Notes under the pieces: generated by a model
Database searches by the model: none
Told to the model about the DNA's origin: nothing
The model's input: the letters and a program-made list of their open reading frames with translations, nothing else
Position numbers and translations under genes: made by a program
Part shown: one piece after another, positions 3,555 to 35,262 of the stretch
Position numbering within the stretch: position 1 is the stretch's first letter
Layout: the number at the start of each line of letters is the position of its first letter
Assembly: GCA_934101645.1 (NCBI GenBank)
Contig: CAKORX010000001.1
Span: 81,051 to 145,050 of the forward strand
Length of the DNA: 64,000 nt
Source: an uncultured Bacilli bacterium
Lineage (GTDB): Bacteria > Bacillota_I > Bacilli_A > RF39 > UBA660
Reading direction: 5' to 3'

Positions 3555-4370
3555 ATGAAGAAAAGAAAGTTAAATAAAAAAAATTTATTTTTGCTTATAT
3601 TTTTTGTTTTAATGTTTTTTACTTTTATACTTAGTTTAGTAAAAATTTTTATGTGGGTAATAGATAATAAAAAAACTGATAAAATTATAAAAGTTGCTAG
3701 TAATATTACAGAAATTACAGAAACAAAAAGTGATAATGAAGTAATTATAGAAACGAAAAGCAAAACTAATGCTTATTTTGAATATATTAAAATGAATTTA
3801 ATTGATGTAGATCTTGATAAATTAAAAAAATATAACGAAGATACTGTGGGCTGGCTTAAAGTCGAAGGCACCAATATAAACTACCCTTTTGTTCAAACTG
3901 ATAATAATGAGGATTATTTAACTAAATCTTTTGATAAAACATTTAATTATGCTGGATGGATATTTTTAGATTATCGAAATAGTTATCTATCACTTGATAA
4001 AAATACAGTTATTTATGGACACGGAAGAGTAAATGGAACAATGTTTGGTTCTTTAAAAGATACATTAAGACCATCATGGCAAAATAATGAAGAAAACTAC
4101 ATAATAAGAATGTCTACAGAAAAAATTAAGACTATGTGGCAAATATTTAGTACTTATAAAATACCCACTACTAACGATTATATTAAAACAAGCTTTACTA
4201 GTGATGAAGAATTTATAAATTTTTTAGAAACTATAAAAAATCGTTCTGAATTTAATTTTAATGTAGACCTTCAAAGTAATGATAAAATTCTTACTCTTTC
4301 AACTTGTTATAATGATACAGAAAAAATGGTAGTTCATGCAAAATTAATTAAATATGAAATTAAGTCATAA
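3555..4370 (+). CDS. srtB: Class B sortase
   Basis: N-terminal TM. SrtB-type motif VGWLKVEGTNINYPFVQTDNNEDYL...GWIFLDYRN, His in VIYGHG, and active-site TLSTC near the C-terminus. Confidence 0.8.
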   Translation: MKKRKLNKKNLFLLIFFVLMFFTFILSLVKIFMWVIDNKKTDKIIKVASNITEITETKSDNEVIIETKSKTNAYFEYIKMNLIDVDLDKLKKYNEDTVGWLKVEGTNINYPFVQTDNNEDYLTKSFDKTFNYAGWIFLDYRNSYLSLDKNTVIYGHGRVNGTMFGSLKDTLRPSWQNNEENYIIRMSTEKIKTMWQIFSTYKIPTTNDYIKTSFTSDEEFINFLETIKNRSEFNFNVDLQSNDKILTLSTCYNDTEKMVVHAKLIKYEIKS

Positions 4371-4403
4371 AAAAAATGCGTAATATTTTACGCAATTTTT
4401 TTT
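4371..4403. terminator. Bidirectional intrinsic terminator between the convergent sortase and adhesin genes
   Basis: A7-TGCGTAA-tatt-TTACGCA-T9: a 7-bp stem with a 4-nt loop, flanked by an A-run and a T-run. Confidence 0.65.
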
Positions 4404-7400
4404 AGTTTTCTTTTTTTCTTAAAAGTACACTAGCACCTAAAGCATTTACTAAAGTAAGCATAATATAAATGCTTCCATTACTTGTAGTGTGTGGTGGAAG
4501 AGGTTCTTCATCTGGAACAATTACACCTTTTCCATCAGTTTTATAATAAACATTTATAATATTATCTTTTTCAGTAATCTTTAAAGGTAAGTTTTCTACC
4601 ATTTCAAGTACATAGTCAGTAGTAGATTTATCAGTATAACTTTCAATTACATCGCCATAGAAGGCATCAAATGTATCAGTTTTTGTTTCATCTAAAACTC
4701 TATCATAATAATATCTAACTTCGTAAGTATATTTACCTTTTACATAGTAAACATCAATTACATCGCCATCTTCGAAAGTTTCAGAAATAGCACTTGGATT
4801 TGTTTTATCAAATACAAAACCTACATATTTATTTGTTACGTTAATTTTGTTAATATCTACTTTTCCTGTAGTTTCTAATACCTGTACCATTTTAGTTACT
4901 TTTTCTGTATCACTAGTTTGTAAAACACCATCTTTATAGTAATTTACTGTATAGCTAATTTCTTTTGTTTGACTTTCATCAAGAATATAATATACTTTTA
5001 TAACTTCACCTGTTTTAATTTCATCAGGTATAATACTTGGATTAGATTCTTTGAATCTATATCCTACATATTTATCTTTAGTATTAATTTCAAATTTATT
5101 TACTGTTAAATTATCACTTTCTAATACTTGTACTGTTTTTGTTACTACTTGTGTATCTTTTGTTTGAAGTACACCATCTATGTAGTATTCAACTGTATAT
5201 GTTAATTCTTTTACTTTACTTTCATCAGTAACATAATAAACATCTATTACATCTCCATCTTCGAAAACTTCTGGAATAGAACTTGGATTAGTCTTATCAA
5301 ACTTATATCCAAAATATTTATTTGTTACATTGATTTTGCTAGTTTCTACTTTTCCTGTAGTTTCTAGAACTTGTACTGTCTTAGTTACTTTTTCTATATC
5401 ACTAGTTTGTAAAACACCATCTTTATAGTAATTTACTGTATAACTAATTTCTTTTGTTTGACTTTCATCAAGAATGTAATATACTTTTATAACTTCACCT
5501 GTTTTAATTTCATCAGGTATAATACTTGGATTAGATTCTTTGAATCTATATCCTACATATTTATCTTTAGTATTAATTTCAAATTTATTTACTGTTAAAT
5601 TATCACTTTCTAATACTTGTACTGTTTTTGTTACTACTTGTGTATCTTTTGTTTGAAGTACACCATCTATGTAGTATTCAACTGTATATGTTAATTCTTT
5701 TACTTTACTTTCATCAGTAACATAATAAACATCTATTACATCTCCATCTTCGAAAACTTCTGGAATAGAACTTGGATTAGTCTTATCAAACTTATATCCA
5801 AAATATTTATTTGTTACATTGATTTTGCTAGTTTCTACTTTTCCTGTAGTTTCTAGAACTTGTACTGTTTTTGTTATTTTTTCTATATCACTAGTTTGTA
5901 AAACACCATCTTTATAGTAATTTACTGTATAGCTAATTTCCTTTGTTTGACTTTCATCAAGAACATAGTAAACATCAATTACGTCTCCATTTTTGAAAGT
6001 TTCAGGAATAACACTAGGATTAGTTTTATCAAATTTATAACCAACATATTTGTTTGTTACATTAATTTTACTAATGTCTACTTTTCCTGTAGTTTCTAAA
6101 ACTTGTATTGTCTTAGTTACTTTTTCTGTATCACTAGTTTGTAAAACACCATCTTTATAGTAATTTACTGTATAACTAATTTTTTTTGTTTGAGTTTCAT
6201 CTGCAACATAATAAACTTTTATTACGTTTTCTTTTTCAGAACTTATGGCAGAAGTTTTATCTGGAGTAGCTTTATCAAATTTATAACCATATTTTGTATT
6301 AGCTTTAATTTTTTCATCAGTTACACCAAATTCTTTACCTTTTGCAAGTGTGCCTGTTTCTGTTAAATCTGCATCTTTAACATTATTATAATAATATTCG
6401 ATAGTATAATCGTATTTATCTACTTCCCAATATACTTCAGGATTTTCATCACAAGTAATAGTTTTTTCATTACCTTGTGAATCAGTATAACTTAAAGTAA
6501 ATCCAGCATTTGTGGCATACCAACCATCATCAGTAATTTTGTCTTCATCAATTGTAATATCAAATGAGAATACTTTACCTTTTTCTGTAATGTCAAATTT
6601 TTCACTTGTATAAGTTTTGCCTTGAGCGTCTGTCATTACAAATTTTGCACCAATATTATCAGTTAAAGTTGCATTAGTACCAGCATCAGCTTTACCTATT
6701 ATAGTGGCAATATCAGTAAATTTATTTACAATTGTTGTAGGATCTGATAAATATACATGATCTGCACCTGAAGCTACTTCACTTAGTATTGTACCATTGT
6801 AATCATATCCAATAGCAAATACTTCAGCGCTTTTTTGAACTGTTTTAGCCATTTCTTTTGTCTTGGCTTCAGTAGTAGCGTCCATGTATGAGCCTGGACC
6901 TTGTGTATAACCGTCTTCATCATAATATAATGTTGGTTCACCATCACTTATTACAACAACATATTTAATAGCGTCTTTTTTTACATTTGATGCTGTTAAT
7001 AATTTATTTGCTTCATAAAGTCCAGCATGTAAGTTTGTTCCACCCTTTGGTGTTCCAAATTTTACATTAGAGAAATCTTTATTATCGAAATCTCTTAAAA
7101 CTTTAGCATCATTATAGGCATTATCAAATATTCCTAAAAAACCATCTTCATCAGCAAATGTTACAAGAGCAATCTTTGCGTTTGGTAATTTTTTATGTAA
7201 TGTTGAAGCAAATGTTTTTGCACCATTAACAGCGCTTGTCCATTTTTCATCTTTAGAGCAATTATAACTATTACACATAGAATTAGATTTATCAAGAACT
7301 ACAACAGCATAAACATCTTTTTTATTTGAAGTTTCTGTTTTAACACTTTTACCTTTTACTTCAAAGGTAACATTGTATTTACCCTCTACATCAGTTTTAG

Positions 7401-7593
7401 ATACTGTTTTAGTAACTTGCACATCACCATCTTCAGCTAAACTACCTTTAGTTACAGTAACACTTTTATTACTAATTTGATTACCTAATCTTAAATCACC
7501 TTTCTGTTCTTTATATTCTGCAAAAACCATAGTTGAAACTACTACTGCAACAAGAACAATTGCACTAGCAAAAAAATATTTTAGTTTTTTCAT
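4402..7593 (-). CDS. Cell-wall-anchored adhesin with a signal peptide, a vWA domain with MIDAS motif, tandem MucBP-like repeats and a C-terminal sorting signal
   Basis: 1063 aa. Signal peptide MKKLKYFFASAIVLVAVVVSTMVFA. DxSxS MIDAS motif in VVVLDKSNSMC. Eight to nine units of ~81 aa with the pattern YTVxYYxDGVLQT...NKYxGYKF...VYYV. The C-terminus is PLPPHTTSNG followed by a hydrophobic stretch and RKKEN, a noncanonical sortase signal. Confidence 0.8.
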   Translation of the reverse strand: MKKLKYFFASAIVLVAVVVSTMVFAEYKEQKGDLRLGNQISNKSVTVTKGSLAEDGDVQVTKTVSKTDVEGKYNVTFEVKGKSVKTETSNKKDVYAVVVLDKSNSMCNSYNCSKDEKWTSAVNGAKTFASTLHKKLPNAKIALVTFADEDGFLGIFDNAYNDAKVLRDFDNKDFSNVKFGTPKGGTNLHAGLYEANKLLTASNVKKDAIKYVVVISDGEPTLYYDEDGYTQGPGSYMDATTEAKTKEMAKTVQKSAEVFAIGYDYNGTILSEVASGADHVYLSDPTTIVNKFTDIATIIGKADAGTNATLTDNIGAKFVMTDAQGKTYTSEKFDITEKGKVFSFDITIDEDKITDDGWYATNAGFTLSYTDSQGNEKTITCDENPEVYWEVDKYDYTIEYYYNNVKDADLTETGTLAKGKEFGVTDEKIKANTKYGYKFDKATPDKTSAISSEKENVIKVYYVADETQTKKISYTVNYYKDGVLQTSDTEKVTKTIQVLETTGKVDISKINVTNKYVGYKFDKTNPSVIPETFKNGDVIDVYYVLDESQTKEISYTVNYYKDGVLQTSDIEKITKTVQVLETTGKVETSKINVTNKYFGYKFDKTNPSSIPEVFEDGDVIDVYYVTDESKVKELTYTVEYYIDGVLQTKDTQVVTKTVQVLESDNLTVNKFEINTKDKYVGYRFKESNPSIIPDEIKTGEVIKVYYILDESQTKEISYTVNYYKDGVLQTSDIEKVTKTVQVLETTGKVETSKINVTNKYFGYKFDKTNPSSIPEVFEDGDVIDVYYVTDESKVKELTYTVEYYIDGVLQTKDTQVVTKTVQVLESDNLTVNKFEINTKDKYVGYRFKESNPSIIPDEIKTGEVIKVYYILDESQTKEISYTVNYYKDGVLQTSDTEKVTKMVQVLETTGKVDINKINVTNKYVGFVFDKTNPSAISETFEDGDVIDVYYVKGKYTYEVRYYYDRVLDETKTDTFDAFYGDVIESYTDKSTTDYVLEMVENLPLKITEKDNIINVYYKTDGKGVIVPDEEPLPPHTTSNGSIYIMLTLVNALGASVLLRKKEN
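4720..6180. repeat. In-frame tandem repeats of about 243 bp, organised as a 489-bp higher-order unit, inside the adhesin gene
   Basis: 4962..5450 and 5451..5939 are near-identical at nucleotide level. For example, the same 60-mers recur at 5110 and 5598, and at 5221 and 5709. Two further single units lie at 4720..4962 and 5940..6180. Confidence 0.85.
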
Positions 7594-7745: not shown

Positions 7746-8450
7746 TTATTTAATTCTATATGGATTACCTAAACTTCCACTTCCAATAAGTTCAATGCTA
7801 GTATCCAGATTCAAGAGCGGACGGACCGAGCCAAGACTGCCGACGAAGATGTCGCCGCCGCCGTTGCCATCCGAACTGACATCGAAAGCGCTGCTGCCAT
7901 TAAGAGAACCCGGCGAAAGAGTCCATTCGAGTCCAGCCGAATAATCATTGCCAGAAACATTGTCCCAAAATGTTTTATCAAATTTTTTATTATATAACCA
8001 ATTTTGTGTTGAACACTTTTCCGTATTTACATAACTTGGAACTGTATCATCATTTGCCCAGCTTACCACACTTCTATCACAATCGTTTGCCATTACTCCA
8101 TACATATAATCGCTTGGATACATTAATCCTACTTTTGCATATGTATATGTTGGATTCCCCTCATAAACAACGCCATATTTTTCGCTATTATTAAATATTT
8201 GGGCTTGTGGCCAATATTCATTATATTTTCCTGTACTAAGGTCTAGTGAATTTAATGACCATCTTGTACTTAGTACTTTATCAATATGATTATAACTATT
8301 TAAGCTTGTTAAATATGTTCCATTTAATAGAGCCTTAAGTGATGAATTATTCCAATTATTCTTTCTATTTGTATCCCATGCTATACCACTTGATGTGTAA
8401 TTTGTAGATTTAATTATCCTTATTACTGGCTGAAGTTTTGTGTTTGTTTC
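7746..8450. repeat. Roughly 700-bp near-identical direct repeat, copy 1 of 2, covering the 3' halves of the tandem paralog genes
   Basis: 7750..~8450 matches 9563..~10263 at an offset of 1813 bp. Only a few substitutions near the stop codon, and divergence rises beyond ~8450. Confidence 0.85.
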
Positions 8451-9356
8451 GCTTGTTCCAACCTTTTCATCAAATACACCAATTATTCTAAAAGTATTAT
8501 CTTCGGCACATGTACCAGATGAATTATTATCTAAACATATATAATTATCTGGATCTTTGCCTTCATACCTATAACCGTTCTCATTTGCTACTAGATACTT
8601 TGTGGATGAATCTTGACTTGATGTTTTTAATCCTTCATTTGCTATACTTTTTATAAAGTCTTCGGCATCTGGGGTTACTGCTTCACATTTTAAATTCTCA
8701 GCATATATTTTACCAGTAAAGGCTTTACCCGCAAGTTGAGACTGATTTGCATTTAAATTATAATATCTAGCAGTTATTTTAAATGTTTGAGTACTTTGAG
8801 TACCACCATTATTTGTTATTCTTGCACCAGTTGCAAGTTTTATTTTTGCACCAGTTGTACTAGTTTTAGCTATCCATCCTTTTGAAGTATTATAATCAAT
8901 GTTTGCCTCTCCACCAAAAGGATTATTACTTCCTGTCGGGCCCTCAACTTCAAAAGTTATTTCTTTATTTGCATTACTTGTTTTAGTTGTAGGACTTTGT
9001 CCATATACATTTGAACTTGAATTATATTCAAATGCTATATCATATGTACACCTTGTACTTATATTAGTTGTTCCTAATAAAGATACATTAATTGTTGCTG
9101 TATTTTCTGCAACAGCAACTGTATTATTTGAATCAAAATTAGTCATATTTGCTCCAGGTACTTGTAAATTTAATGTTGAACTACTTGTGGTAAATGATGA
9201 ATTACCCGGAGAGACAGCATTAATATTTACTACTACATTGCCATTTAAGTTTGTATTAAATGATCCGAAAAAAGCAAATGTTGCGGATACTACTACAACA
9301 ACTAATATTAATAATGCGATAATTGAATAAATATTTATCTTTATATTATTTTTCAT
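7746..9356 (-). CDS. Secreted or surface protein of unknown function, paralog 1. It has an N-terminal signal/anchor and is Cys-containing.
   Basis: 536-aa ORF. The N-terminal hydrophobic segment is followed by SATFAFFGSFN. The C-terminal ~300 aa are identical to those of the downstream paralog. Confidence 0.7.
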   Translation of the reverse strand: MKNNIKINIYSIIALLILVVVVVSATFAFFGSFNTNLNGNVVVNINAVSPGNSSFTTSSSTLNLQVPGANMTNFDSNNTVAVAENTATINVSLLGTTNISTRCTYDIAFEYNSSSNVYGQSPTTKTSNANKEITFEVEGPTGSNNPFGGEANIDYNTSKGWIAKTSTTGAKIKLATGARITNNGGTQSTQTFKITARYYNLNANQSQLAGKAFTGKIYAENLKCEAVTPDAEDFIKSIANEGLKTSSQDSSTKYLVANENGYRYEGKDPDNYICLDNNSSGTCAEDNTFRIIGVFDEKVGTSETNTKLQPVIRIIKSTNYTSSGIAWDTNRKNNWNNSSLKALLNGTYLTSLNSYNHIDKVLSTRWSLNSLDLSTGKYNEYWPQAQIFNNSEKYGVVYEGNPTYTYAKVGLMYPSDYMYGVMANDCDRSVVSWANDDTVPSYVNTEKCSTQNWLYNKKFDKTFWDNVSGNDYSAGLEWTLSPGSLNGSSAFDVSSDGNGGGDIFVGSLGSVRPLLNLDTSIELIGSGSLGNPYRIK

Positions 9357-9533
9357 ACTACCCTTTTCTCTTTCATAAATACGATATCCATTATTTCAAA
9401 AACTATTACATTTAGAAATAACTCTATCTTATTTTTGTACCATTATAAATATATTTTATCATACTTTCATATTAAATAATATAAATTTTCATTAAATCAC
9501 ATATTTTTTTATAAATGTTTAACTTAATTTTAT

Positions 9534-9558
9534 AAAAAAAGCACATAATGTGCTAAAA
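9534..9558 (-). terminator. Intrinsic terminator downstream of paralog 2
   Basis: The minus strand reads GCACA-tta-TGTGC followed by T7, with an A7 run on the other side. Confidence 0.6.
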
Positions 9559-10263
9559 TTATTTAATTCTATACGGATTGCTTAAACTTCCACTTCCAAT
9601 AAGTTCAATGCTAGTATCCAGATTCAAGAGCGGACGGACCGAGCCAAGACTGCCGACGAAGATGTCGCCGCCGCCGTTGCCATCCGAACTGACATCGAAA
9701 GCGCTGCTGCCATTAAGAGAACCCGGCGAAAGAGTCCATTCGAGTCCAGCCGAATAATCATTGCCAGAAACATTGTCCCAAAATGTTTTATCAAATTTTT
9801 TATTATATAACCAATTTTGTGTTGAACACTTTTCCGTATTTACATAACTTGGAACTGTATCATCATTTGCCCAGCTTACCACACTTCTATCACAATCGTT
9901 TGCCATTACTCCATACATATAATCGCTTGGATACATTAATCCTACTTTTGCATATGTATATGTTGGATTCCCCTCATAAACAACGCCATATTTTTCGCTA
10001 TTATTAAATATTTGGGCTTGTGGCCAATATTCATTATATTTTCCTGTACTAAGGTCTAGTGAATTTAATGACCATCTTGTACTTAGTACTTTATCAATAT
10101 GATTATAACTATTTAAGCTTGTTAAATATGTTCCATTTAATAGAGCCTTAAGTGATGAATTATTCCAATTATTCTTTCTATTTGTATCCCATACTATACC
10201 ACTTGATGTGTAATTTGTAGATTTAATTATCCTTATTACTGGCTGAAGTTTTGCGTTTGTTTC
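9559..10263. repeat. Roughly 700-bp near-identical direct repeat, copy 2 of 2
   Basis: See copy 1. It includes the same GC-rich 150-bp patch at 9614..9763. Confidence 0.85.
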
Positions 10264-11169
10264 GCTTGTTCCAACCTTTTCATCAAATACACCAATTATT
10301 CTAAATGTATTATCTTCAGCACATGTACCAGATGAATTATTATCTAAACATATATAATTATCTGGATCTTTGCCTTCGTATCTATAACCGTTCTCATTTG
10401 CAACAATATATTTTGTAGATGTATCTTGACTTGATGTTTTTTCACCTTCAGCAGCTATATTTTTTATAAAGTCTTCGGCATCTGGTGTTACACCTTCACA
10501 AACTGGATTTTCTGCATAAACTTTTCCAACGAAATTTTTACTATCAAGTTGTGATTGTGACACCTCTAAATTATAGTATCTTGCGGTAATCTTCCAACTT
10601 TGAGTGTTTGGAGTGCTACTATTATTTGTAATTCTTGCACCAGTTGCAAGTTTTATTTTTGCTCCTTTTGTGCTAGTTTTAGCTATCCATCCTTTTGCTA
10701 TGTCATAATCAATATTTGTTTCTGCTCCAAAAGGATTAGTTTCACCGATTGGACCTTCAACTTCAAAAGTTATTTCTTTATCTGCACCACTTGTTTTAAT
10801 TGTTGGACTTTGTCCATATACACTTGAATTTAAATCGTATTCAAAAACTATATCATAAGTACATCTTGTGCTAAGTTCTGATGATCCCGTTAAAGTTACA
10901 TTTAATATTGCACTATTTTCTGCTGCTGCTACCCTATTATTTGCAACAATTTCACTCATATTTCCAGAGCGAACAAACAAATTTAAGATTGAACTATCTG
11001 ATACAAGTGATGAACTTCCTGGTGATGCTGCATTTATATTTACCGCTATATTACCATTTAAATTTTCATTAAATGAACCAAAATATGCAAATGCCGCAGA
11101 TACTACTATAATAAGTAACATTACTATTGCAAAAATTGAATATATATTTACCTTTACTTTATCTTTCAT
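9559..11169 (-). CDS. Secreted or surface protein of unknown function, paralog 2
   Basis: 536-aa ORF. The N-terminal half is ~60% identical to paralog 1 and the C-terminal half is identical. N-terminal motif SAAFAYFGSFN follows the hydrophobic segment. Confidence 0.7.
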   Translation of the reverse strand: MKDKVKVNIYSIFAIVMLLIIVVSAAFAYFGSFNENLNGNIAVNINAASPGSSSLVSDSSILNLFVRSGNMSEIVANNRVAAAENSAILNVTLTGSSELSTRCTYDIVFEYDLNSSVYGQSPTIKTSGADKEITFEVEGPIGETNPFGAETNIDYDIAKGWIAKTSTKGAKIKLATGARITNNSSTPNTQSWKITARYYNLEVSQSQLDSKNFVGKVYAENPVCEGVTPDAEDFIKNIAAEGEKTSSQDTSTKYIVANENGYRYEGKDPDNYICLDNNSSGTCAEDNTFRIIGVFDEKVGTSETNAKLQPVIRIIKSTNYTSSGIVWDTNRKNNWNNSSLKALLNGTYLTSLNSYNHIDKVLSTRWSLNSLDLSTGKYNEYWPQAQIFNNSEKYGVVYEGNPTYTYAKVGLMYPSDYMYGVMANDCDRSVVSWANDDTVPSYVNTEKCSTQNWLYNKKFDKTFWDNVSGNDYSAGLEWTLSPGSLNGSSAFDVSSDGNGGGDIFVGSLGSVRPLLNLDTSIELIGSGSLSNPYRIK

Positions 11170-11207
11170 AGTAATATTTTAACACATTTCAAATTATATA
11201 GGAATAT

Positions 11208-11229
11208 AAAAAAAGCACAAAATGTGCTA
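11208..11229 (-). terminator. Intrinsic terminator after sortase gene 2. It overlaps the sortase TAG stop and lies only ~40 bp upstream of paralog 2.
   Basis: The minus strand reads GCACA-ttt-TGTGC followed by T7. The same stem sequence occurs in the terminator at 9534..9558. Confidence 0.55.
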
Positions 11230-11952
11230 AATAATTTCTTTTGCTATAACAAGCATATATTTATTTTTATATTTACTATATTCTTTTAAGTTACTACATG
11301 TCTGAATTATTAATAAATTATCATTTGCATTTACATTTATACCTGTATCATAAAATGATTTATTTTTAAGTTTTTGATAATGTGCTTCTTTTTCTTCTTT
11401 AGAAGTATAATCTATTTTCATATAATCCCAATCTTTAGTTTCTACGTATGCAGAAAAGATTTGATATTTTCTTACTTTTTTAGTAGTAGAAATGTAAACA
11501 TACTGATGCTCTTTATAATAATCTTCATTTACATAATTTTCGATAATCATTATTGGAAGCATGTAATTCGGAGAACTATGACCAAATATTAAAAGTTTTT
11601 CACTTTCATCAATATCAACTCTATAATCTAAAAAGATTGAACCATTTATATTATATGTTTTATCTGGTAAATGATTTAAATAATAACTATTATCTTTTCC
11701 CTGCATTATAGCGGTATTAAAATCGGTATCATTAATTTGAATGGTTCCTACTACATCATCATTATTATATTCCTTTTTTAATGAAGTAATTTTTTCTTCA
11801 TATACTTCTTCTTTATTATCAGGTAAATCTTTTGTTACTAAAATAAAATTATCATATTTACCAACGTTATAATACTCTAAAACAAAATATACTGATAAAA
11901 CTGTAAGCACTATAACGGGAATTATTACTAATAGTTTATTAATAATTTTCAT
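11227..11952 (-). CDS. srtB: Class B sortase
   Basis: N-terminal TM. Motif VVGTIQINDTDFNTAIMQGKDNSYYLNH...NGSIFLDYR, His in LIFGHS, and active-site LIIQTC. Confidence 0.8.
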   Translation of the reverse strand: MKIINKLLVIIPVIVLTVLSVYFVLEYYNVGKYDNFILVTKDLPDNKEEVYEEKITSLKKEYNNDDVVGTIQINDTDFNTAIMQGKDNSYYLNHLPDKTYNINGSIFLDYRVDIDESEKLLIFGHSSPNYMLPIMIIENYVNEDYYKEHQYVYISTTKKVRKYQIFSAYVETKDWDYMKIDYTSKEEKEAHYQKLKNKSFYDTGINVNANDNLLIIQTCSNLKEYSKYKNKYMLVIAKEII

Positions 11953-24439: not shown

Positions 24440-25438
24440 CTATCTAAAGATACTAAATCCAAAAGATTCTTTATCAGAAATTCTTGTAAAACCTAATTCT
24501 TTAAGTAACTTATTAATTATCTTGTTATCGTCAATTTTATCATCAACATTTGGTAAATTGAAAAATACTTTACTACCACTTTCTTTTTCAAAATCACTTA
24601 CATCGTTATCGTTTAATACACTACGATTTAAGATAATCTTTTTGCCTTTTAACTTTTCAAAAGCCTTATGATCTGTTTTAATTAATTTATTAAGCTGAAT
24701 AAGGCCAGGCTCAATTAAATAAATTATATCCGTACAATAAGAACTTGCATCAGCATTATTCATATCAATTATAATAACTTCAGCATCTTTATTACTTGCA
24801 TCATCTAAATATTTTTCTATATCAAAACTATTTACATTGCTTTTTAAATTACTATCATTAAAATAAACAAAATCGCTTTTATCTAGTTCTGCAGCTTTAA
24901 CTTTATATTCCTTTTCTAGATGTTTTTTTAATAAATAAGCAAGTGTAGTAGCACCAGCATGTTCAGTAACATTTTTAATACCTAAAACTCTTCTTCCAAT
25001 AAAACCAACACTTTTATCAACTGCTTTATCATTAAGTTTTCTTTCTTCAGCTGCCATATTCAAATTATGATAATTGGCAACATCTTTGTATGTATTTGGG
25101 TTATCTATTAAAAAAGGTATAGAATCTACATTTTTTGTAAAATTGTAAATACCCATTGATACAAGACTTGACAAATACATTGGTGAGTTTACCTTCGGAG
25201 AATCATCTAAAAGTAAAATTACTTTACTCATGTCAAGAGCTACTGACAAATCTTGAATTGTGTTAATATCCTCGTAATTTTCAAGTGCTGTAATATCTAA
25301 AATCATTCTATTGTAATAAAAATTTTTGAATTGAGATGCTAAATCATTTACCTCAAAAACCCCGTTTAAAGTTTTAATTACATCTATGCCTAAACCAGCA
25401 AGTAATGCTTCATTTTTATTTGAAATAATAACGTTCAT
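24440..25438 (-). CDS. TadZ/CpaE-like pilus-assembly protein with a MinD/ParA-type ATPase fold and a degenerate P-loop
   Basis: The N-terminus is a receiver-like domain. The central segment GIKNVTEHAGATTLAYLL aligns to the MinD P-loop region but lacks the Lys. The gene lies immediately downstream of the pilin genes, as in Tad loci. Confidence 0.5.
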   Translation of the reverse strand: MNVIISNKNEALLAGLGIDVIKTLNGVFEVNDLASQFKNFYYNRMILDITALENYEDINTIQDLSVALDMSKVILLLDDSPKVNSPMYLSSLVSMGIYNFTKNVDSIPFLIDNPNTYKDVANYHNLNMAAEERKLNDKAVDKSVGFIGRRVLGIKNVTEHAGATTLAYLLKKHLEKEYKVKAAELDKSDFVYFNDSNLKSNVNSFDIEKYLDDASNKDAEVIIIDMNNADASSYCTDIIYLIEPGLIQLNKLIKTDHKAFEKLKGKKIILNRSVLNDNDVSDFEKESGSKVFFNLPNVDDKIDDNKIINKLLKELGFTRISDKESFGFSIFR

Positions 25439-25449
25439 AAAAAACCTCC

Positions 25450-25968
25450 TTAACTATATAATAATTTTGTTTCACCAATTGCTCTAAAATTAAATATGGC
25501 ATGTAAAACTGGAATATCTAACTGATAAAAAACATATACACGATAATAATAACCTTTTAGTGTATCCTCAGATTTATTACTATCTATCTTCGCAATGCAA
25601 AAAGAACTTTTTTTACCACTTAAAGTTTTATCGCCATTTCTCTGATAACCAACCATATCTACGACAACACTGCCGTTTTCATTAAATGGTATATCTTCAC
25701 AACTTCCTTGTTGACGATAAGAATTACTTTCTAATGAATCAACAATATTTTGTAAAGTGGCTTGATCTTTATTATCCATATTACAATTTCCTAAGAAACA
25801 TTGAGCGCTTGTATCAAATCCTCCAGCAGTTTCGATTATTGAAACTATTTGGTCCTTTACAGCAAAAGCATTAGCCTGATTTAATGTAAGAGACATTACT
25901 CCTGCAAAAATAAGTACCATTACAACAACAATTAAAAATAATTGTATTCCGCCTATTCCTTCTCTCAT
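25450..25968 (-). CDS. Pseudopilin-like protein, TadE-like. It has an N-terminal hydrophobic segment after a short charged leader.
   Basis: The N-terminus reads MREGIGG|IQLFLIVVVMVLIFAG followed by an extracellular domain. Its position in the Tad-like operon supports the call. Confidence 0.4.
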   Translation of the reverse strand: MREGIGGIQLFLIVVVMVLIFAGVMSLTLNQANAFAVKDQIVSIIETAGGFDTSAQCFLGNCNMDNKDQATLQNIVDSLESNSYRQQGSCEDIPFNENGSVVVDMVGYQRNGDKTLSGKKSSFCIAKIDSNKSEDTLKGYYYRVYVFYQLDIPVLHAIFNFRAIGETKLLYS

Positions 25969-25974
25969 AACTTA

Positions 25975-26196
25975 CTACCCCTTAAACATACATTGGAAAC
26001 TTTTACCATCTAAGGTGCAATTTACCATACCATTTTCATCAGGATACACTGAACAACTTGCTTTTTCACAACTTGTTTGCGCAACAAAATTAGTTTTAAT
26101 TATTGGCCATATTGTAAAGTAAAAAAAGGCTACGAGAATAGCCACACAAACACATACAACAACAAGATTTGCTAGACTTCCCGTAGCATTTTTCAT
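25975..26196 (-). CDS. Flp-type pilin-like small protein with a Cys-rich C-terminus
   Basis: 73 aa. The N-terminus MKNATGSLANLVVVCVCVAILVAF is a short polar leader ending in G plus a hydrophobic helix. It shares the K-x-A-T-G-[ES]-L-x-N motif with the next gene. Confidence 0.55.
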   Translation of the reverse strand: MKNATGSLANLVVVCVCVAILVAFFYFTIWPIIKTNFVAQTSCEKASCSVYPDENGMVNCTLDGKSFQCMFKG

Positions 26197-26220
26197 TTTT
26201 TCTTACTCCTTTTTGATTAA

Positions 26221-26481
26221 TTATTGACCTACTGTACAATCACATTGAATAGTGTCTTCGCTAATATTCATACCAGCAGCACTATCAGCATCTGTGTAAT
26301 AATGGCATTCTTGAGTACCATTATCACATGCAGTACATTGTACTGCAGCATGACAATAAGTTCTTGCTCTAATAGCGTTTCTTAAAGCGGGATATAAGAA
26401 TACTGTGAATAATGTTAGTATAGCAGCAATTGCAACTACAGTTATAACAGTGTTACTTAATTCACCTGTAGCTTCCTTCAT
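26221..26481 (-). CDS. Flp-type pilin-like small protein with a Cys-rich C-terminus
   Basis: 86 aa. The N-terminus MKEATGELSNTVITVVAIAAILTLF is followed by 8 Cys in the C-terminal 50 aa. Confidence 0.55.
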   Translation of the reverse strand: MKEATGELSNTVITVVAIAAILTLFTVFLYPALRNAIRARTYCHAAVQCTACDNGTQECHYYTDADSAAGMNISEDTIQCDCTVGQ

Positions 26482-26551
26482 ATATTTAATCCTCCTTTAT
26501 TGTATATTTTTATTATAACAACATTTTATTTAATTATCAATATATTTTACA

Positions 26552-27343
26552 TTATAGATTAATCATTTCAAGTACAGCAAGTATCAAGATAATCATTACA
26601 CCTACACCTGTTGTAACAAGCATTCTCATGGTCATACTTTCCATTTTATCAAGACGATTTTTATATCTTGTTTCTCTAGCCTTTTGCTGTAAAGATGAAA
26701 TTGATTTTGAAAATGTTAATAATTGTTCTTGTTTTCTTTCCTGTCTTCCTAAACTTAAACGATATAGTAGTCTCATCATTCTCATACTATCTCTAACAGG
26801 ATATTCTTTTGCAAATTCCATATAGGGAGTAATTGTATCATCACCAGAGTTAATTGCATTTATTAGTTCCTCAAGACCTGGTTTAAATATCTCTGGTGCA
26901 TCATTTATAGATTTACCTATTGCAACTGGAACTGTATAGTGTTGAATTAATATTTCAATACTTTTTAAATAGTGTGGAAGCAAAGAATCTATTTGAGCAA
27001 TATGCTTTTTATAGTAGTTTTTTATTTCCATATAAGTTATTTTAAATACACCATAACCTACAGCCACTGCAATAACCATTTTTATCGCAGAAAAGCCTGT
27101 CATCATTACGTAAAATACTGCTAAAATTGTACCAATTAAACCATTTCTAACACGTTTATTAAAAAGAATATCGGGATTTACGGCATTACCATATTTTGCT
27201 TTAACATAAAAATCCCAATCACTTTCTTTTAATTTTCTAAAAATAACTTCATTATCACTAATTAATTTACTAAAACTAATTTGTCCCGTAGTGAACATTA
27301 TTAAATAAATAATGGCCCCTAAAATAAATATTTCATAATACAT
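26552..27343 (-). CDS. tadC: Tad pilus assembly inner-membrane protein of the TadC/GspF-domain family
   Basis: 263 aa. An N-terminal TM, a cytoplasmic domain and C-terminal TMs. Adjacent to the TadB-like gene and the ATPase. Confidence 0.55.
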   Translation of the reverse strand: MYYEIFILGAIIYLIMFTTGQISFSKLISDNEVIFRKLKESDWDFYVKAKYGNAVNPDILFNKRVRNGLIGTILAVFYVMMTGFSAIKMVIAVAVGYGVFKITYMEIKNYYKKHIAQIDSLLPHYLKSIEILIQHYTVPVAIGKSINDAPEIFKPGLEELINAINSGDDTITPYMEFAKEYPVRDSMRMMRLLYRLSLGRQERKQEQLLTFSKSISSLQQKARETRYKNRLDKMESMTMRMLVTTGVGVMIILILAVLEMINL

Positions 27344-27344
27344 A

Positions 27345-28247
27345 TTATTCTACCCCCACATCTTCATTATAATATTTTTCACCTTTTAATAGGAACAAAG
27401 CATTTATAATAATAATTGCATGAAGTATAATTTGCACATACCATATATCTAAAAGGTCCATATATCTTTCAGTACCATACATGTATTGTACAGCTAAAAT
27501 CAAGAAAAATAATGCTAAACCAAATTTAATAAATCTTCCATGGAAATTTTTACGATCCATTTGGTCCCTATAAACGCCTTCAACAAGAGCATCTATATCC
27601 ATTGACATGTTCTCTAAACTTTGTCCAGCATCCCTTGCACCTTCTTTAGTTATTTGATAGAAAAGTTGGTGCATATTTTTAACCATATAATATGGATATT
27701 TTTTATTAAAATAATCAATTGATTCATCTATCGTACCATTTTGATAAGACATATCAATCATCTTTTTAAGGTCACCTAATACAGGTTCTTCAATAATACC
27801 AGAATCCCTAACACCCTCTAATGATTTAACAAAACTTTGAGTTGTATTAAACTCCATTATTACATTGGTTGTGTAAGTTTCAATTTGTTCAAATATAAAT
27901 TCTGAATATATTCTTTGGCATCTTAAATATGCTAGATAAGGAATTACAGATATTGCCACCACAGCATAAACAATTGATATCAAAACATTATAAAAATATA
28001 AATACGCTACGATACCAGCAAAACCAGCAAATAAAACTATTTGTGAAATATATTGTCTCGTAGTAAACTCTTGACCAAGTTCTTTAGCTTTTGCTCTTAC
28101 TGTCTTAAATGAATACGGAGCATATTTTTCATAAGCATTTGATGCAGTGGTAACAAAAAACTTATAAACATTTTCTCCAGGATTTCTACGATACAAAATG
28201 ATAAAAATTCCCAGTAACAAAAGTATAATAAGTTCTAACACATACAT
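27345..28247 (-). CDS. tadB: Tad pilus assembly inner-membrane protein of the TadB/GspF-domain family
   Basis: 300 aa with polytopic topology typical of the T2SS F domain. The ORF start is only about 10 nt downstream of the ATPase ORF end (stop not checked), and the ORF end is 2 nt from the TadC-like ORF start. Confidence 0.55.
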   Translation of the reverse strand: MYVLELIILLLLGIFIILYRRNPGENVYKFFVTTASNAYEKYAPYSFKTVRAKAKELGQEFTTRQYISQIVLFAGFAGIVAYLYFYNVLISIVYAVVAISVIPYLAYLRCQRIYSEFIFEQIETYTTNVIMEFNTTQSFVKSLEGVRDSGIIEEPVLGDLKKMIDMSYQNGTIDESIDYFNKKYPYYMVKNMHQLFYQITKEGARDAGQSLENMSMDIDALVEGVYRDQMDRKNFHGRFIKFGLALFFLILAVQYMYGTERYMDLLDIWYVQIILHAIIIINALFLLKGEKYYNEDVGVE

Positions 28248-28259
28248 ATAAACTCCTTT

Positions 28260-29402
28260 CTATAATGAATCAATAGCTTCCATTTTTGGCATTTCTAATT
28301 CTACATCTTCATTATTTGTTTCTTTTTTTACTTCATCGGTGTTATTAACTTCATCAAATAAAGTTTCATCAAGTTTCTTTCCTTGTGCTCCAAAATAATC
28401 CTTTAAATATTTCGTAGGTTTATTAAATGAAATAGTTCCATCCAAGCTCTTAGAAAATATTTTATTTACACCAGCTTCATTATTTTCATCTACATAAAAT
28501 TCCGCAACCTCAACTATTTCACGTTGAAATCTTTGAAGTTCTGCACTCATGTATCCTTTAACATGGATACCAATTTGTACATATCTATGAATTGATTTTA
28601 AAAATTGTTCAATATCTTGATTGCTTTCAAGAAGTGAATACATACGCATTGGAATATGACTTGCACTATCTGAGTGAATTGTAGAAATAATATTATGTCC
28701 TGATGAAATAGAGTTACGTACAGCAGTAACAGCTTCGGCAGAACGAACTTCGGAAAGTAGTATCCATTTAGGATTCTGTCTCATACATGTTACAAGTACA
28801 TCAGAATACGATGCAATATTATTGGTTTTCATTGCAACAATATCTCTATGTGGAAAAATTCTATCTAAATGTAATTCCAAAGTATCTTCGATTGTAATAA
28901 TTTTTTCGTTTTCCTCAGTATTTGAAGCTAAATATTTAGCAAGTTCAGTTTTACCTGAACCAGTTTCACCGGAAATAATAATATTGCAGTGTGCTTTAAC
29001 ACATGATATTAAAAAATTATGTACATTTTCAGTAACATATTTTTCATTAAGTAATTTTTCTTTATTAAGTCTTATCTTTGCAGGTGTTTTTCTTATAACA
29101 CATGCAATTCCATTTGTAGCAATACTTTCATGAACAAAGTTAAGACGAAGTTCTGTACTTTCGGCATCCAGAAATGGATGAGCCATGTTAAATGTAGTTC
29201 CCATAACATTTGAACATTGAAAAGCAAGTTTTTCCATTAAAGCATTATTTATTTCAGGTCTATTGACCATATATATACCTTTATCCAAAGTTTTTAGCCA
29301 AACATTTCCACCATTTGAGTACGAAATATCGGTAATATTATCATCATTTAAAAACTCAGTTATTGGTCCAAAATCTAATTGTGAAAATATTGATTCTTTC
29401 AC
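28260..29402 (-). CDS. tadA: Secretion ATPase of the CpaF/TadA/VirB11 family
   Basis: Walker A in IIISGETGSGKTE. His-box-like SSGHNIISTIHSDSA. GTG start with a GGAG RBS. Confidence 0.8.
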   Translation of the reverse strand: MKESIFSQLDFGPITEFLNDDNITDISYSNGGNVWLKTLDKGIYMVNRPEINNALMEKLAFQCSNVMGTTFNMAHPFLDAESTELRLNFVHESIATNGIACVIRKTPAKIRLNKEKLLNEKYVTENVHNFLISCVKAHCNIIISGETGSGKTELAKYLASNTEENEKIITIEDTLELHLDRIFPHRDIVAMKTNNIASYSDVLVTCMRQNPKWILLSEVRSAEAVTAVRNSISSGHNIISTIHSDSASHIPMRMYSLLESNQDIEQFLKSIHRYVQIGIHVKGYMSAELQRFQREIVEVAEFYVDENNEAGVNKIFSKSLDGTISFNKPTKYLKDYFGAQGKKLDETLFDEVNNTDEVKKETNNEDVELEMPKMEAIDSL

Positions 29403-29424
29403 AAATAATCACTCCCTTTTATTT

Positions 29425-30195
29425 TTATTCTTCTGGTAATGGTGAAGTCTTAGCTAATATAAAGTTCTTTAGATATTCTACAGTAACAGTACTAGCATTT
29501 TTTTCTGTATATGCTTTATTACGAGGTACAGGTACTAAAGTAATACCTGAAATATATCCAGCATACATTAATAATTTATACATGTCATTTGGTACGGCAA
29601 ATAAAAGTTCAGCAGGTGTTCTTGTCTCAGTAGAGCCAAATACATCTTTACCACTTGCATCACGTACACCTAAAACTGTGATACTTTCAATAAAGTTACC
29701 AAACATAATTTTTCCACTATCATCAGTAGCTTTTAAATAAAGGTCAATTTTATCACCAGGATAAATTGAATTACCAAATGTTGTATGATTATTAACAGAC
29801 ATACTATAAATTGTATGCTTATCTGGAATATTATCAAATACTGAGTTTGGTAGTTCAGCTTTTGTAACTACTTGAGTTTTATAGAAAAGTCCTCCTTTAG
29901 GAATAGATGTACCAGTAGTAACATAATAACCAATTAAAGCTCCTTGACTTTGAATAATATCTGCAGTTTTTAAGAGTTTATTATTAACCTCTACAAACCC
30001 AATCTTATCTTCAGTAATTTCTTCTGTAGCTTTAATCTCTTCCTTTGCATAAGGTACTCTTATCGGTGTTGTTGCCTCTTTTACTCTTGCTGAGTAAAAA
30101 GCCCAAAGTACAACAATACCTGCAAGTACAAGTAAAATAGTAACTGTATTTTTATTTGCAACAGTCTTTCTAATAAATTCTTTTATATTTCCCAT
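29425..30195 (-). CDS. cpaB: Flp pilus assembly protein CpaB/RcpC-like (N-terminal TM plus a SAF-like domain)
   Basis: The likely start is ATG at 30195 (MGNIKEF...) with a GGAGGA RBS. The ORF is open further upstream to 30270. TM is TVTILLVLAGIVVLWAF, and the SAF-like region is ADIIQSQGALIGYYVTTGTSIP. Confidence 0.5.
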   Translation of the reverse strand: MGNIKEFIRKTVANKNTVTILLVLAGIVVLWAFYSARVKEATTPIRVPYAKEEIKATEEITEDKIGFVEVNNKLLKTADIIQSQGALIGYYVTTGTSIPKGGLFYKTQVVTKAELPNSVFDNIPDKHTIYSMSVNNHTTFGNSIYPGDKIDLYLKATDDSGKIMFGNFIESITVLGVRDASGKDVFGSTETRTPAELLFAVPNDMYKLLMYAGYISGITLVPVPRNKAYTEKNASTVTVEYLKNFILAKTSPLPEE

Positions 30196-30314
30196 TTTTA
30201 TCCTCCATATTGATAATCTTCTACTATCAATTAAAATTATAGCAATTTTTAAAAATATTTTCAATAACATATCATAAAAAAAGACACATTTTTATTCTCG
30301 TGTCTTTTTGGTTT

Positions 30315-31463
30315 TTATTTGAATGCTATATATTCAGTAAATGCACTATTTACATTATCATACTTTTCACAAGATTGTCCTACCATCGGATTATAAACTT
30401 TAAAACAATTGTTAGTTGCATCATAACCATAAATAGTGTAATAATGTCCACTTTTTGTACTTTTCAAAGTTGAATCACTTCGTGCAGAAAAACCTGGTGC
30501 TAAAGATGCAACGACTACCTGACCACTTGCTAATGCATCATATATTGCCTTTGCATGACCGGATGGACCTTCGCCAAATTTTCCTCCAGACCCAGCAACA
30601 CTGATTCCGATTGAATTATAAAAACTATTACTTTGATTATAGTCATTAACTCTTCCACAGAATAAACTGCTTGAGGCATCAGTAGTATTACTTGTCGGAT
30701 CTCCATTTAATCCTACTTTATTCATTCCAACATAAGCAGCTGCTGCAAGTTTGTTATAATCACTGCCATTATAACCTGTTGCACTCTTCAAATTATTTAC
30801 TTTACCTAGAAAATATGCAGCTTCAGTAATAGCAATTGGTCCACATGCACAGCCAAAGTTTACATTGTAATCACCCCATGTAGTAGACACATTTTCACGT
30901 CTACTAGACTGATATATATTCGCAGGATTAATATTAAATCCAACGTCATGTAATTCTTCATCGCTTGGTGTTTCTTCATCAGGATTTGTAGGTGTATCTG
31001 GATTAGTCGGTGTTGTTTGATCTGGCTCTTTAACATTTTCTCCAGTTCCTTGACTATCTTTAGTCTTTGTTTCAAGAATTGCATCAATTCTATTAACAAT
31101 ATCAAATGTTGTTGAATCACCGCTTACATTAAATGCTGCAGATTTACTTGAAACTTGAACACCAACTTTTGGTGGAGCCTCGTAAATCTCAGTAAATTCG
31201 ATAGTATAAACAGTTGAAAGCGAAGCTTCTTCAGCAAATCTTCTTAAAAAAACTTCATAAAACTTTTCTTTGTTAATTTTTATCTCACCGTATTGACGGT
31301 AATAAGCATAATCTACTGCATCAACCATAGCTGACTCAGTAATTTCTTTTACTAAATAATAATCTTGTGTATTAGTTGAAGTATAGCTTTGGACAAGAAG
31401 GAGTACTACTATGATAAATACTCCTAAAACCATTAGCCAATAGCCCCAATAGGATTCCTTCAT
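30315..31463 (-). CDS. Membrane-anchored protein with a C-terminal papain-like cysteine peptidase domain (C39-like / BtrH-like)
   Basis: N-terminal TM. A Pro/Thr-rich linker (TPTNPDTPTNPDEETP). Catalytic-type Cys in NFGCACGPIAITEAAYF and His in SGHYYTIYGYD. Confidence 0.6.
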   Translation of the reverse strand: MKESYWGYWLMVLGVFIIVVLLLVQSYTSTNTQDYYLVKEITESAMVDAVDYAYYRQYGEIKINKEKFYEVFLRRFAEEASLSTVYTIEFTEIYEAPPKVGVQVSSKSAAFNVSGDSTTFDIVNRIDAILETKTKDSQGTGENVKEPDQTTPTNPDTPTNPDEETPSDEELHDVGFNINPANIYQSSRRENVSTTWGDYNVNFGCACGPIAITEAAYFLGKVNNLKSATGYNGSDYNKLAAAAYVGMNKVGLNGDPTSNTTDASSSLFCGRVNDYNQSNSFYNSIGISVAGSGGKFGEGPSGHAKAIYDALASGQVVVASLAPGFSARSDSTLKSTKSGHYYTIYGYDATNNCFKVYNPMVGQSCEKYDNVNSAFTEYIAFK

Positions 31464-31475
31464 TTCATACCCTCC

Positions 31476-35261: not shown

Positions 35262-35262
35262 A

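Follow-up and report, generated by a model that had tools for sequence, protein, structure and literature searches.

How can two neighbouring genes be almost identical over one half of their length and clearly divergent over the other? This question is raised by a tandem gene pair in a 64,000-nucleotide (nt) stretch of DNA, the window of this analysis, from an uncultured Bacilli bacterium (GenBank assembly GCA_934101645.1, contig CAKORX010000001.1, positions 81,051 to 145,050 of the forward strand). The downstream paralog is designated here A and the upstream paralog B, and coordinates are positions of the 64-kb window; L-numbers denote fetched loci or contigs of relatives, and P-numbers denote related protein alleles. 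In our opinion, A and B are very probably tandem modular surface-protein paralogs of uncultured gut Bacilli related to 'Mycoplasma sp. CAG:472', the tails of which carry the variable region (VR) of a diversity-generating retroelement (DGR) and have been homogenised by gene conversion. Each protein would comprise four parts, namely an N-terminal signal or anchor with an F-A-Y/F-F-G motif, a β-sandwich head, a short linker, and a C-type-lectin-fold domain of the DUF6273 type; the last ~25 variable codons of the tail domain are the VR. A homologous-recombination tract of 610-819 nt has made both tails identical, VR included. The genes and their parts are as follows.

7746-9356, minus strand: gene A, 536 aa, the downstream paralog, with signal/anchor, head and lectin-fold tail containing a VR (open reading frame (ORF) and AlphaFold models)
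9559-11169, minus strand: gene B, 536 aa, the upstream paralog, with signal/anchor, β-sandwich head and C-type-lectin-fold tail containing a VR (ORF)
8673-9215, minus strand: head of A, predicted β-sandwich, residues ~48-228, paralog-specific, old and stable (in B, 10486-11028)
7749-8588, minus strand: tail of A, residues 257-536, predicted enlarged C-type-lectin-like domain of the DUF6273 type (in B, 9562-10401)
7746-8564, minus strand: homogenised tract of A, 819 nt with 7 mismatches, ~99% identical (partner in B, 9559-10377)
7770-8379, minus strand: mismatch-free core of the tract, 610 nt (partner in B, 9583-10192)

Divergent heads and homogenised tails

A and B are direct repeats at an offset of exactly 1813 nt, as the first-pass annotation had proposed, and the alignment at this offset contains no indels. 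The ungapped identity, taken per 50 nt, is 94-100% from 7750 to ~8550 and 60-92% from there to 9350, while the flanks fall to 22-48%. The near-identity of the 3′ ends is real and extends further than the ~700 bp initially reported, i.e., over 819 nt, with mismatches at A coordinates 7761, 7767, 7769, 8380, 8441, 8493 and 8505. The 5′ halves share 76% DNA identity. At the protein level, residues 1-250 are 68% identical, so that the divergence of the N-terminal halves stands, with the earlier figure of ~60% being slightly low; residues 251-536 are 98.6% identical. Nei-Gojobori estimates of synonymous (dS) and nonsynonymous (dN) divergence for the heads are 0.79 and 0.22, respectively (dN/dS 0.27), and dS of the tails is 0.036. 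The contrast in dS excludes both chance and a divergence that is uniform along the full length of the genes. Positive selection on the heads is ruled out by their dN/dS, and a recent duplication followed by fast divergence of the heads is ruled out by their dS and by the conservation of head orthologs between strains. The mismatches at 7761-7769 represent orthologous A/B differences (Gly/Ser530) that are retained in other strains; their persistence marks the 3′ end of the conversion tract.

Comparison with other strains, which the first-pass annotation had suggested for copy number and chimeric variants, was based on syntenic loci from independent assemblies recovered by exact-protein look-up. 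It yielded copy numbers of one or two and the chimeric alleles P0001, P0002, P0008 and P0011. The loci are:

L080: 98.6% identical to the window over 19 kb; two copies
L081/L082: 99.7% identical to the window; two copies
L085: 97-98% identical on either side of a mosaic break that lies within the upstream paralog; two copies
L083: downstream flank 97% and gene region 93% identical, upstream context different; one copy
L087/L088: one copy
L096: tandem, partial, with a different downstream gene; two copies (partial)

Between strains, A-type and B-type heads are each 97.5-100% identical, and the two head types are 76% identical to each other; in the B orthologs of L080, L081 and L085 the heads are 99-100% identical. 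The tails behave differently, with 99% identity between A and B in the window genome and only 92-94% between the window and L080. This pattern, in which paralogs within a genome are closer than orthologs between strains, is the signature of concerted evolution.

Per-column entropy in 30 population alleles is ~0 across both heads and rises in the tail, where it peaks at 0.9-1.0 bit over a patch of 25-29 codons, which is the VR. The 30 sequences contain seven VR alleles, three of which occur on both head types. P0001 has an A head with a patch otherwise found on B, and P0008 has a B head with a patch otherwise found on A; in P0011 a B head is joined to a tail that differs strongly from ~residue 318 onward, the head of P0002 is chimeric, and P0004 and P0006 have a third head type. 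The tail patches combine in all ways, and several alleles are clear mosaics. Recombination is thus confirmed; the heads are stable, and the tail is the variable part. The gene conversion or recombination that the first-pass annotation had recognised is borne out by the identity profile, the dS contrast, and the between-strain comparison of tails. Its picture of a variable head on a constant tail has to be reversed, since the heads are near-invariant in the 30 alleles and the tail is polymorphic and mosaic.

Retroelement variable regions and their possible source

In a DGR, a template repeat (TR) is copied by a reverse transcriptase (RT) that makes errors at the template adenines; the cDNA so produced replaces the VR and thereby randomises ligand-binding loops. 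The candidate VRs of the pair are located as follows.

7819-7919, minus strand: DGR VR of A, the TR-homologous stretch, with variable codons 483-507 at 7836-7910 (TR alignment and guanine-plus-cytosine (GC) content)
9632-9732, minus strand: DGR VR of B, identical to that of A in the window genome, with variable codons at 9649-9723 (evidence as for A)

Codons 483-507 read GGT TCT CTT AAT GGC AGC AGC GCT TTC GAT GTC AGT TCG GAT GGC AAC GGC GGC GGC GAC ATC TTC GTC GGC AGT. Their third positions are C in 15 cases, T in nine, G in one and A in none (NNC/NNT codons), compared with T 208, A 204, G 39 and C 31 in the rest of the gene. The GC content of the window is ~27% (standard deviation, 0.06), and the two VR patches, at 0.61-0.63 versus the mean of 0.27, are its only stretches with a GC content of at least 0.5. 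The VR alleles differ at first and second codon positions; the L087 allele departs from the window VR by three differences, which fall on these positions only. The upstream copy of L085 (L85_up, P0011) has ordinary AT-rich codons at the VR site, which is the look of a tail without a VR.

The TR at L090:1919-2016 reads CTTTCGCCG AAT TCT GAT AAT GAC AAC AAC GCT TTC AAT GTC AAT TCG GAT GGC AAC GTC AAC AAC AAC AAC GTC GAC AAT CTTGGCTCGGTCCGTCC. The flanks CTTTCGCCG and CTTGGCTCGGTCCGTCC, together with the invariant codons, are identical in this TR and in the window VRs. The shared 17-nt 3′ boundary, CTTGGCTCGGTCCGTCC, is similar to an initiation-of-mutagenic-homing site; beyond it the VR continues with GCTCTTGAA and the TR with TGCCTGGTG. 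All mismatch tests were made against this TR, which lies on a closely related contig and has adenine at 28 of its 98 positions. The mismatches that fall on TR adenines are:

VR of window A and B: 16 of 18 (P=1.6e-7)
L80_up VR: 17 of 19
L80_dn VR: 18 of 19
L85_dn VR: 19 of 20
L87 VR: 16 of 17
L91 VR: 17 of 17
L84 VR: 21 of 21

Across the VR alleles, P ranges from 1.6e-7 to 4e-12. The adenine specificity of the mismatches and the exact TR flanks lead to the conclusion that both genes carry DGR VRs, a central feature that the first-pass annotation did not recognise. The VR is placed at the C-terminal end of a C-type-lectin-type fold, as is characteristic of DGR targets, and DUF6273 is a DGR target fold in phages, including the tentaclins (PMC10743442). 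A degenerate-pattern scan of public collections for the TR gave a single metagenome match, L084, which turned out to be another VR allele and not a TR; the pattern had no match in viral contigs.

Complete cassettes were found on L090 and L093, in both of which the TR directly follows the RT gene. The TR of L090 comes immediately after an Avd-like gene and the gene of a 354-aa RT, which scores 85.6 bits on RVT_1 and contains the motifs IGNxxSQ and YMDD. The fetched loci were scanned for repeat pairs whose mismatches fall on one base, and seven loci of metagenome-assembled genomes (MAGs), namely L006, L010, L017, L026, L040, L049 and L059, contain TR/VR pairs with adenine-specific mismatches at the homologous site of family genes. 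In all seven, an Avd-like gene and an RT are located between the targets or next to them; in two more loci, L033 and L057, only Avd and RT are present. Downstream of P0009, which shares 72% identity with A, come a 127-aa protein, Avd and RT, and the same cassette follows P0007, which is 80% identical to A and has a head of its own. A third paralog, full-length and immediately adjacent to the cassette, has a tail with 92-96% DNA identity to the window tails. The first 55 nt of L094 match the 3′ end of B exactly and lead into a cassette 99% identical to that of L090/L091. L094 and the syntenic two-copy locus L085 come from the same metagenome sample, with similar coverage (5.05 and 5.82, respectively), a hint that the cassette resides in the same genome as the tandem pair. 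We infer that three or more family genes are present in genomes of this lineage, i.e., the tandem pair near uvrB and one gene beside the DGR, and that the window genome carries the cassette elsewhere.

The DGR cassettes also contain a small gene of 127-145 aa that precedes Avd and another, of 86-96 aa, that follows the TR; both are conserved across cassette types (L090:116-499 and 2182-2442; L059:12954-13235; L091:666-1103). The extra gene of L059 has a faint match to MutS domain I (E 0.096), and the RT of the same locus has no YxDD motif. A strong GC-rich hairpin (-17.7 kcal/mol, z -4.0) occurs at L094:65-115, just after the stop codon of the DGR-adjacent paralog, and could be a terminator or a DGR target-recognition element.

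Several observations weigh against the proposed account of the pair. Neither the window nor the syntenic loci L080-L083 contain a TR, RT or Avd; in the window, tblastn with the RTs and Avds of related loci had no match, the tail 3′ end occurs only twice, and no ORF resembles an RT gene. The TR used for comparison belongs to another sample, is one codon shorter than the window VR, and leaves two mismatches at positions other than adenine. VR lengths differ from that of the TR by 1-5 codons in several alleles, even in a TR-adjacent target (L089); such changes are unusual for a DGR, and classic homing does not account for them. The small number of VR alleles, seven in 30 sequences, and the occurrence of identical VRs in different strains suggest that diversification is infrequent or currently off. 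A hairpin or cruciform downstream of the VR is required in the Bordetella phage DGR; no such hairpin follows the VR of either A or B, and the 105 nt between the VR of A and its stop codon fold no better than shuffled sequences (z +0.39). Finally, the surface location, processing and ligand of the two proteins are inferred. As for the length changes, they always fall within the (AAC)n/GTC part (L089, L090, L093, L080 and L085; L089 was compared with the TR of the 98.7%-identical L093), and our guess is that slippage or recombination produces them.

Because the window has no cassette, A and B are either remote targets or recipients of tails by recombination from a third, DGR-adjacent paralog; new VRs would thus arrive either by direct homing in trans or by recombination. 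Since the VRs of A and B are identical, including 16 shared substitutions at adenine sites, conversion followed the last homing event on either route. Direct homing in trans alone, in which A and B would be active targets of a remote DGR and their identical VRs would reflect a very recent conversion before the next homing, is in our opinion a serious, if tentative, possibility. It is favoured by the identity of the VR and TR flanks, including the 17-nt 3′ boundary, and by the L080 locus, the two tails of which are identical over nt 801-1400 and only 77-82% identical in the VR-containing stretch (nt 1401-1600), a hint of in-situ diversification. Remote targets are, moreover, already known for DGRs (PMC8144416). 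The missing hairpin speaks against it, as does the cassette not being seen in the window genome, and the unchanged VR alleles common to strains and to both head types are better accommodated by transfer through recombination. We regard with equal reserve, and take as seriously, an indirect route, in which only the DGR-adjacent paralog would be mutagenised and recombination between tails of 92-100% identity would copy its 3′ end to A, to B, and between the two. This route accounts for conversion tracts of 610-819 nt, far longer than the VR, for the mosaic tail patches upstream of the VR, for the presence of VR alleles on A, B and other heads in several strains, and for the strong hairpin found only behind the DGR-adjacent copy. 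It would, however, require very short conversion tracts to produce the VR-limited differences in L080, and no cassette-adjacent donor with the window VR allele was found.

A variable-surface-antigen system with no retroelement, the heads being variable and exchanged by recombination on a tail that stays constant, could produce the head/tail chimeras (P0011, P0002 and the third head of P0004/P0006) and copy numbers of one to two; it is quite unlikely, given that the heads are invariant within each paralog and under purifying selection, and that the hypervariable element lies in the tail and bears the adenine-specific DGR signature. The identical tails might also be an assembly artefact of repeat collapse or mis-joining, near-identical repeats of 800 nt being hard for short-read assemblers. 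This explanation, which the first-pass annotation had itself raised, is scarcely credible, since four or more independent assemblies show this arrangement with the same spacing, including genomes whose two tails differ in the VR; the tandem pair recurs in L080, L081/L082 and L085, and partly in L096.

Returning to DGR-diversified and gene-converted tails, it is possible, if somewhat doubtful, that they reflect two coupled layers: the DGR would write loops into one lectin-fold tail, and gene conversion would distribute or homogenise them across paralogs with different, stable heads and tails of 92-100% identity. The conserved mid-gene segment would then serve as a crossover anchor, and RT slippage on the (AAC)n of the template would add variation in VR length. 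If this is true, concerted evolution would be an inherent mechanism by which diversity generated by the retroelement reaches remote genes without target-recognition elements of their own.

Protein architecture, N-terminus and neighbouring genes

Neither A nor B matches a Pfam or NCBIfam family, and a sequence profile search of solved structures gave no match at E up to 1. Structure prediction, another check proposed by the first-pass annotation, produced a full-length AlphaFold model (predicted local distance difference test score, 70) with an N-terminal helix, a low-confidence stretch, a β-sandwich head, a linker helix, and a C-terminal α/β, C-type-lectin-like domain. The model lacks Met1, so that its numbering is the true numbering minus 1, and the β-sandwich spans ~50-226 in the model. 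With Pfam DUF6273 (PF19789), A and B have no match at E up to 1, while a 94%-identical allele, P0001, scores 22.2 bits versus a cut-off of 23.5; the suggested kinship of the tails to DUF6273 is thus one of modelled structure.

The family is large: no fewer than 2730 relatives were found at E up to 1e-3, nearly all of them from metagenomic Bacilli. The exact proteins A and B are present in public collections, in clusters of 14 and 23 members, respectively. A search with the head only added just nine sequences; a single-protein scan of genome contigs found nothing, and an alignment-based scan found 79 loci. The 83 related loci contain 36 head-only ORFs, 64 tail-only ORFs and 10 ORFs with both, and this separate occurrence of heads and tails indicates that the family is modular. 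Tandem arrays are common in related MAGs (five tail genes in L021, three head genes in L005, more than 10 loci in CAKOIF), and the family is massively expanded in these small genomes. An ORF of L079 that begins at 9077 joins the lectin-fold tail to an N-terminus of the classic prepilin type, MNKKGLTLVELV..., so that type IV pilin-like proteins may also display this domain. The window GltX clusters at an identity of at least 90% with GltX of 'Mycoplasma sp. CAG:472'.

The N-terminal element is defined as follows.

9258-9356, minus strand: residues 1-33 of A, with a basic N-terminus, ~19 hydrophobic residues and S-A-T-F-A-F-F-G-S-F (same element in B, 11071-11169)

Phe27, Ala28 and Gly31 (true numbering) are invariant in 88 relatives down to ~33% identity, and the family motif is S/A-x-F-A-Y/F-F-G. 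In many differently headed relatives the hydrophobic segment ends in (G/A)(A/S)(T/S)(F/Y)A(Y/F)F. The segment, modelled as a helix followed by a low-confidence stretch, is unlike the N-termini of the other secreted proteins encoded in the window, which have ordinary signal peptides. A class III signal of the type IV pilin/archaellin kind was not detected, with TIGR02537 scores of 12.3-14.4 bits versus a cut-off of 20 and no conserved Gly before the hydrophobic stretch.

The first-pass annotation had noted a faint resemblance of this motif to SipW-cognate signals. The motif is real and conserved, and it does resemble TFAYFSD of camelysin, but A and B have no match to the corresponding profile, TIGR04088; neither does the L036 family protein, compared with 41.9 and 54 bits for TasA/camelysin controls at a cut-off of 19. 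The proteins might be TasA/camelysin-like fibre subunits, cleaved after Ala28 by a SipW-type peptidase and polymerised by donor-strand exchange, with lectin domains displayed along the fibre. This is unlikely, in our opinion, and the SipW or TasA idea is weak. The F-A-Y/F-F motif does end the hydrophobic segment in the same manner as T-F-A-Y-F-S-D of camelysin, the segment after it is modelled at low confidence, and five of eight distant family N-termini have sub-threshold TIGR04088 matches of 10.6-17.2 bits. A SipW-type peptidase is also encoded near a family gene in L036, and a 93%-identical one in L023. On the other hand, structural comparison with TasA (peptidase M73 fold) indicates that the mature domain is not TasA-like. 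No SipW or LepB-type peptidase was found in the window; among the fetched DNA, a sipW-type gene, for which the first-pass annotation had proposed to search elsewhere in the genome, occurs only in L036 and L023, which are loci of related MAGs. SipW-type cleavage of A and B is a lead suggested by sequence, and an uncleaved signal-anchor is equally possible.

The L036 gene (6894-7403; 169 aa) encodes a SipW/archaeal-type signal peptidase (TIGR02228, 68 bits; cut-off, 51.85) and lies 650 nt downstream of the family gene, just upstream of priA. The 93%-identical peptidase is at L023:15062-15568, and none was found elsewhere in the fetched DNA.

On the minus strand, the gene of an SrtB-like sortase comes first, followed by B, A, and the gene of a 1063-aa protein with a VWA domain. 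The neighbouring features are:

11227-11952, minus strand: class-B-like sortase gene directly upstream of B (Pfam Sortase, 29.8 bits; TIGR03064, 120.4 bits, under the cut-off of 153.75)
3555-4370, plus strand: second SrtB-type sortase gene (passes TIGR03064 with 170.6 bits)
4402-7593, minus strand: VWA-domain protein, 1063 aa, the downstream neighbour, with a sorting-signal-like C-terminus (LPPHTTSNG, hydrophobic stretch, RKKEN; ORF and domain match)
9540-9554, minus strand: terminator-like hairpin and T-run just after the stop codon of B (near-identical copy after the sortase stop codon, 11214-11228)

The position of the pair between a sortase gene and the VWA gene suggests an adhesin-like, ligand-binding role. 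Our best reading is that A and B bind ligands at the cell exterior, where the head would be a stalk and the lectin-fold tail would provide a programmable binding site. Neither A nor B has a sorting signal of the LPXTG type with its hydrophobic segment and basic tail; both end in ...GSGSL(G/S)NPYRIK without a hydrophobic tail.

The two class-B-type sortase genes flank the cluster; in L083 the divergent one (11227-11952) is absent and the upstream context is different. The VWA gene stays beside a family gene in L080, L081, L083 and L085, an association that is kept within the species and is not general across the family. At 4742-6225 it contains ~6 tandem units of 243 nt (81 aa), some of them 94% identical at a period of 489 nt, and the repeat number depends on the strain (1063 aa in the window and L080; 900 aa in L081 and L083). 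The VWA protein also has weak matches to DUF4183 ('F-ENAs'). The hairpin AGCACAtnnTGTGCT with its T-run, found after the stop codons of B and of the sortase gene, is part of a 27-nt repeat, the two copies of which share 96% identity. These hairpins look like intrinsic terminators, and a single operon of sortase, A, B and VWA genes is for this reason not assured. The antisense ORFs inside A (8899-9330, plus strand, 143 aa) and B (10868-11182, plus strand, 104 aa) have hydrophobic, low-complexity translations and are most likely not genes. Elsewhere in the window, a Tad-like pilus or secretion locus occupies ~24440-35988 on the minus strand and encodes a CpaB/RcpC-like protein (29425-30270), a T2SSE-family ATPase (28260-29402), a protein with DUF5411 and Peptidase_C39_2 (30315-31463), and a secreted protein of 1261 aa without a family match (31476-35261), together with two polytopic membrane proteins and small pilin-like proteins.

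Comparison with known systems

Concerted evolution by gene conversion in tandem surface-protein paralogs offers a general comparison, with no specific system singled out. The likeness consists in segments that are closer within a genome than between orthologs of different strains, in mosaic alleles, and in a copy number of one to two. The difference is that the converted segment of A and B holds a hypervariable cassette written by a retroelement, so that conversion redistributes the output of a DGR rather than the diversity of silent cassettes.

Lectin-fold proteins diversified by DGRs include Mtd of the Bordetella phage, TvpA of Treponema denticola and the DUF6273 phage tentaclins. Unlike these, A and B have no cassette nearby, being remote or orphan targets, and they are chromosomal, tandem and homogenised by gene conversion, with a VR length that departs from that of the TR by 1-5 codons. 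Their N-terminal module is a predicted membrane signal or anchor with a β-sandwich, and not a phage tail or lipoprotein module. In the IgA protease of Thomasclavelia ramosa (PDB 9qa6), the DUF6273 domain precedes an M64 metallopeptidase as the N-terminal part of the fusion; catalysis does not require it, and it is not known to undergo diversification, whereas in A and B the domain is C-terminal and contains a VR; there is no significant sequence match between the two. The resemblance to SipW-dependent TasA/camelysin signals (TIGR04088) lies in the end of the hydrophobic segment, (S/T)-F-A-(Y/F)-F, which is near to T-(F/W)-A-(Y/A)-F; A and B differ in having no profile match and in a mature domain that is not TasA-like.

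Metagenome surveys of DGRs count only RT-adjacent targets and explicitly miss remote ones, and modular recombination of heads and tails was postulated in such a survey (PMC8144416). The A/B locus is a concrete case of the latter. It also indicates that hidden DGR targets are recognisable by sequence alone, as a GC-rich island of NNC codons that ends a lectin-fold domain in an AT-rich genome. The N-terminal DUF6273 domain of the T. ramosa IgA protease is tied in this manner to a family that uses the fold as a programmable binding module. The relatives of A and B constitute a large unannotated family of probable surface proteins of gut Bacilli with reduced genomes, which probably mediates contact with the host, particles or other cells. 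Lectin-fold DGR targets, remote targets and concerted evolution are each known already; A and B are an unannotated member of the family in which DGR diversification and concerted evolution are combined.

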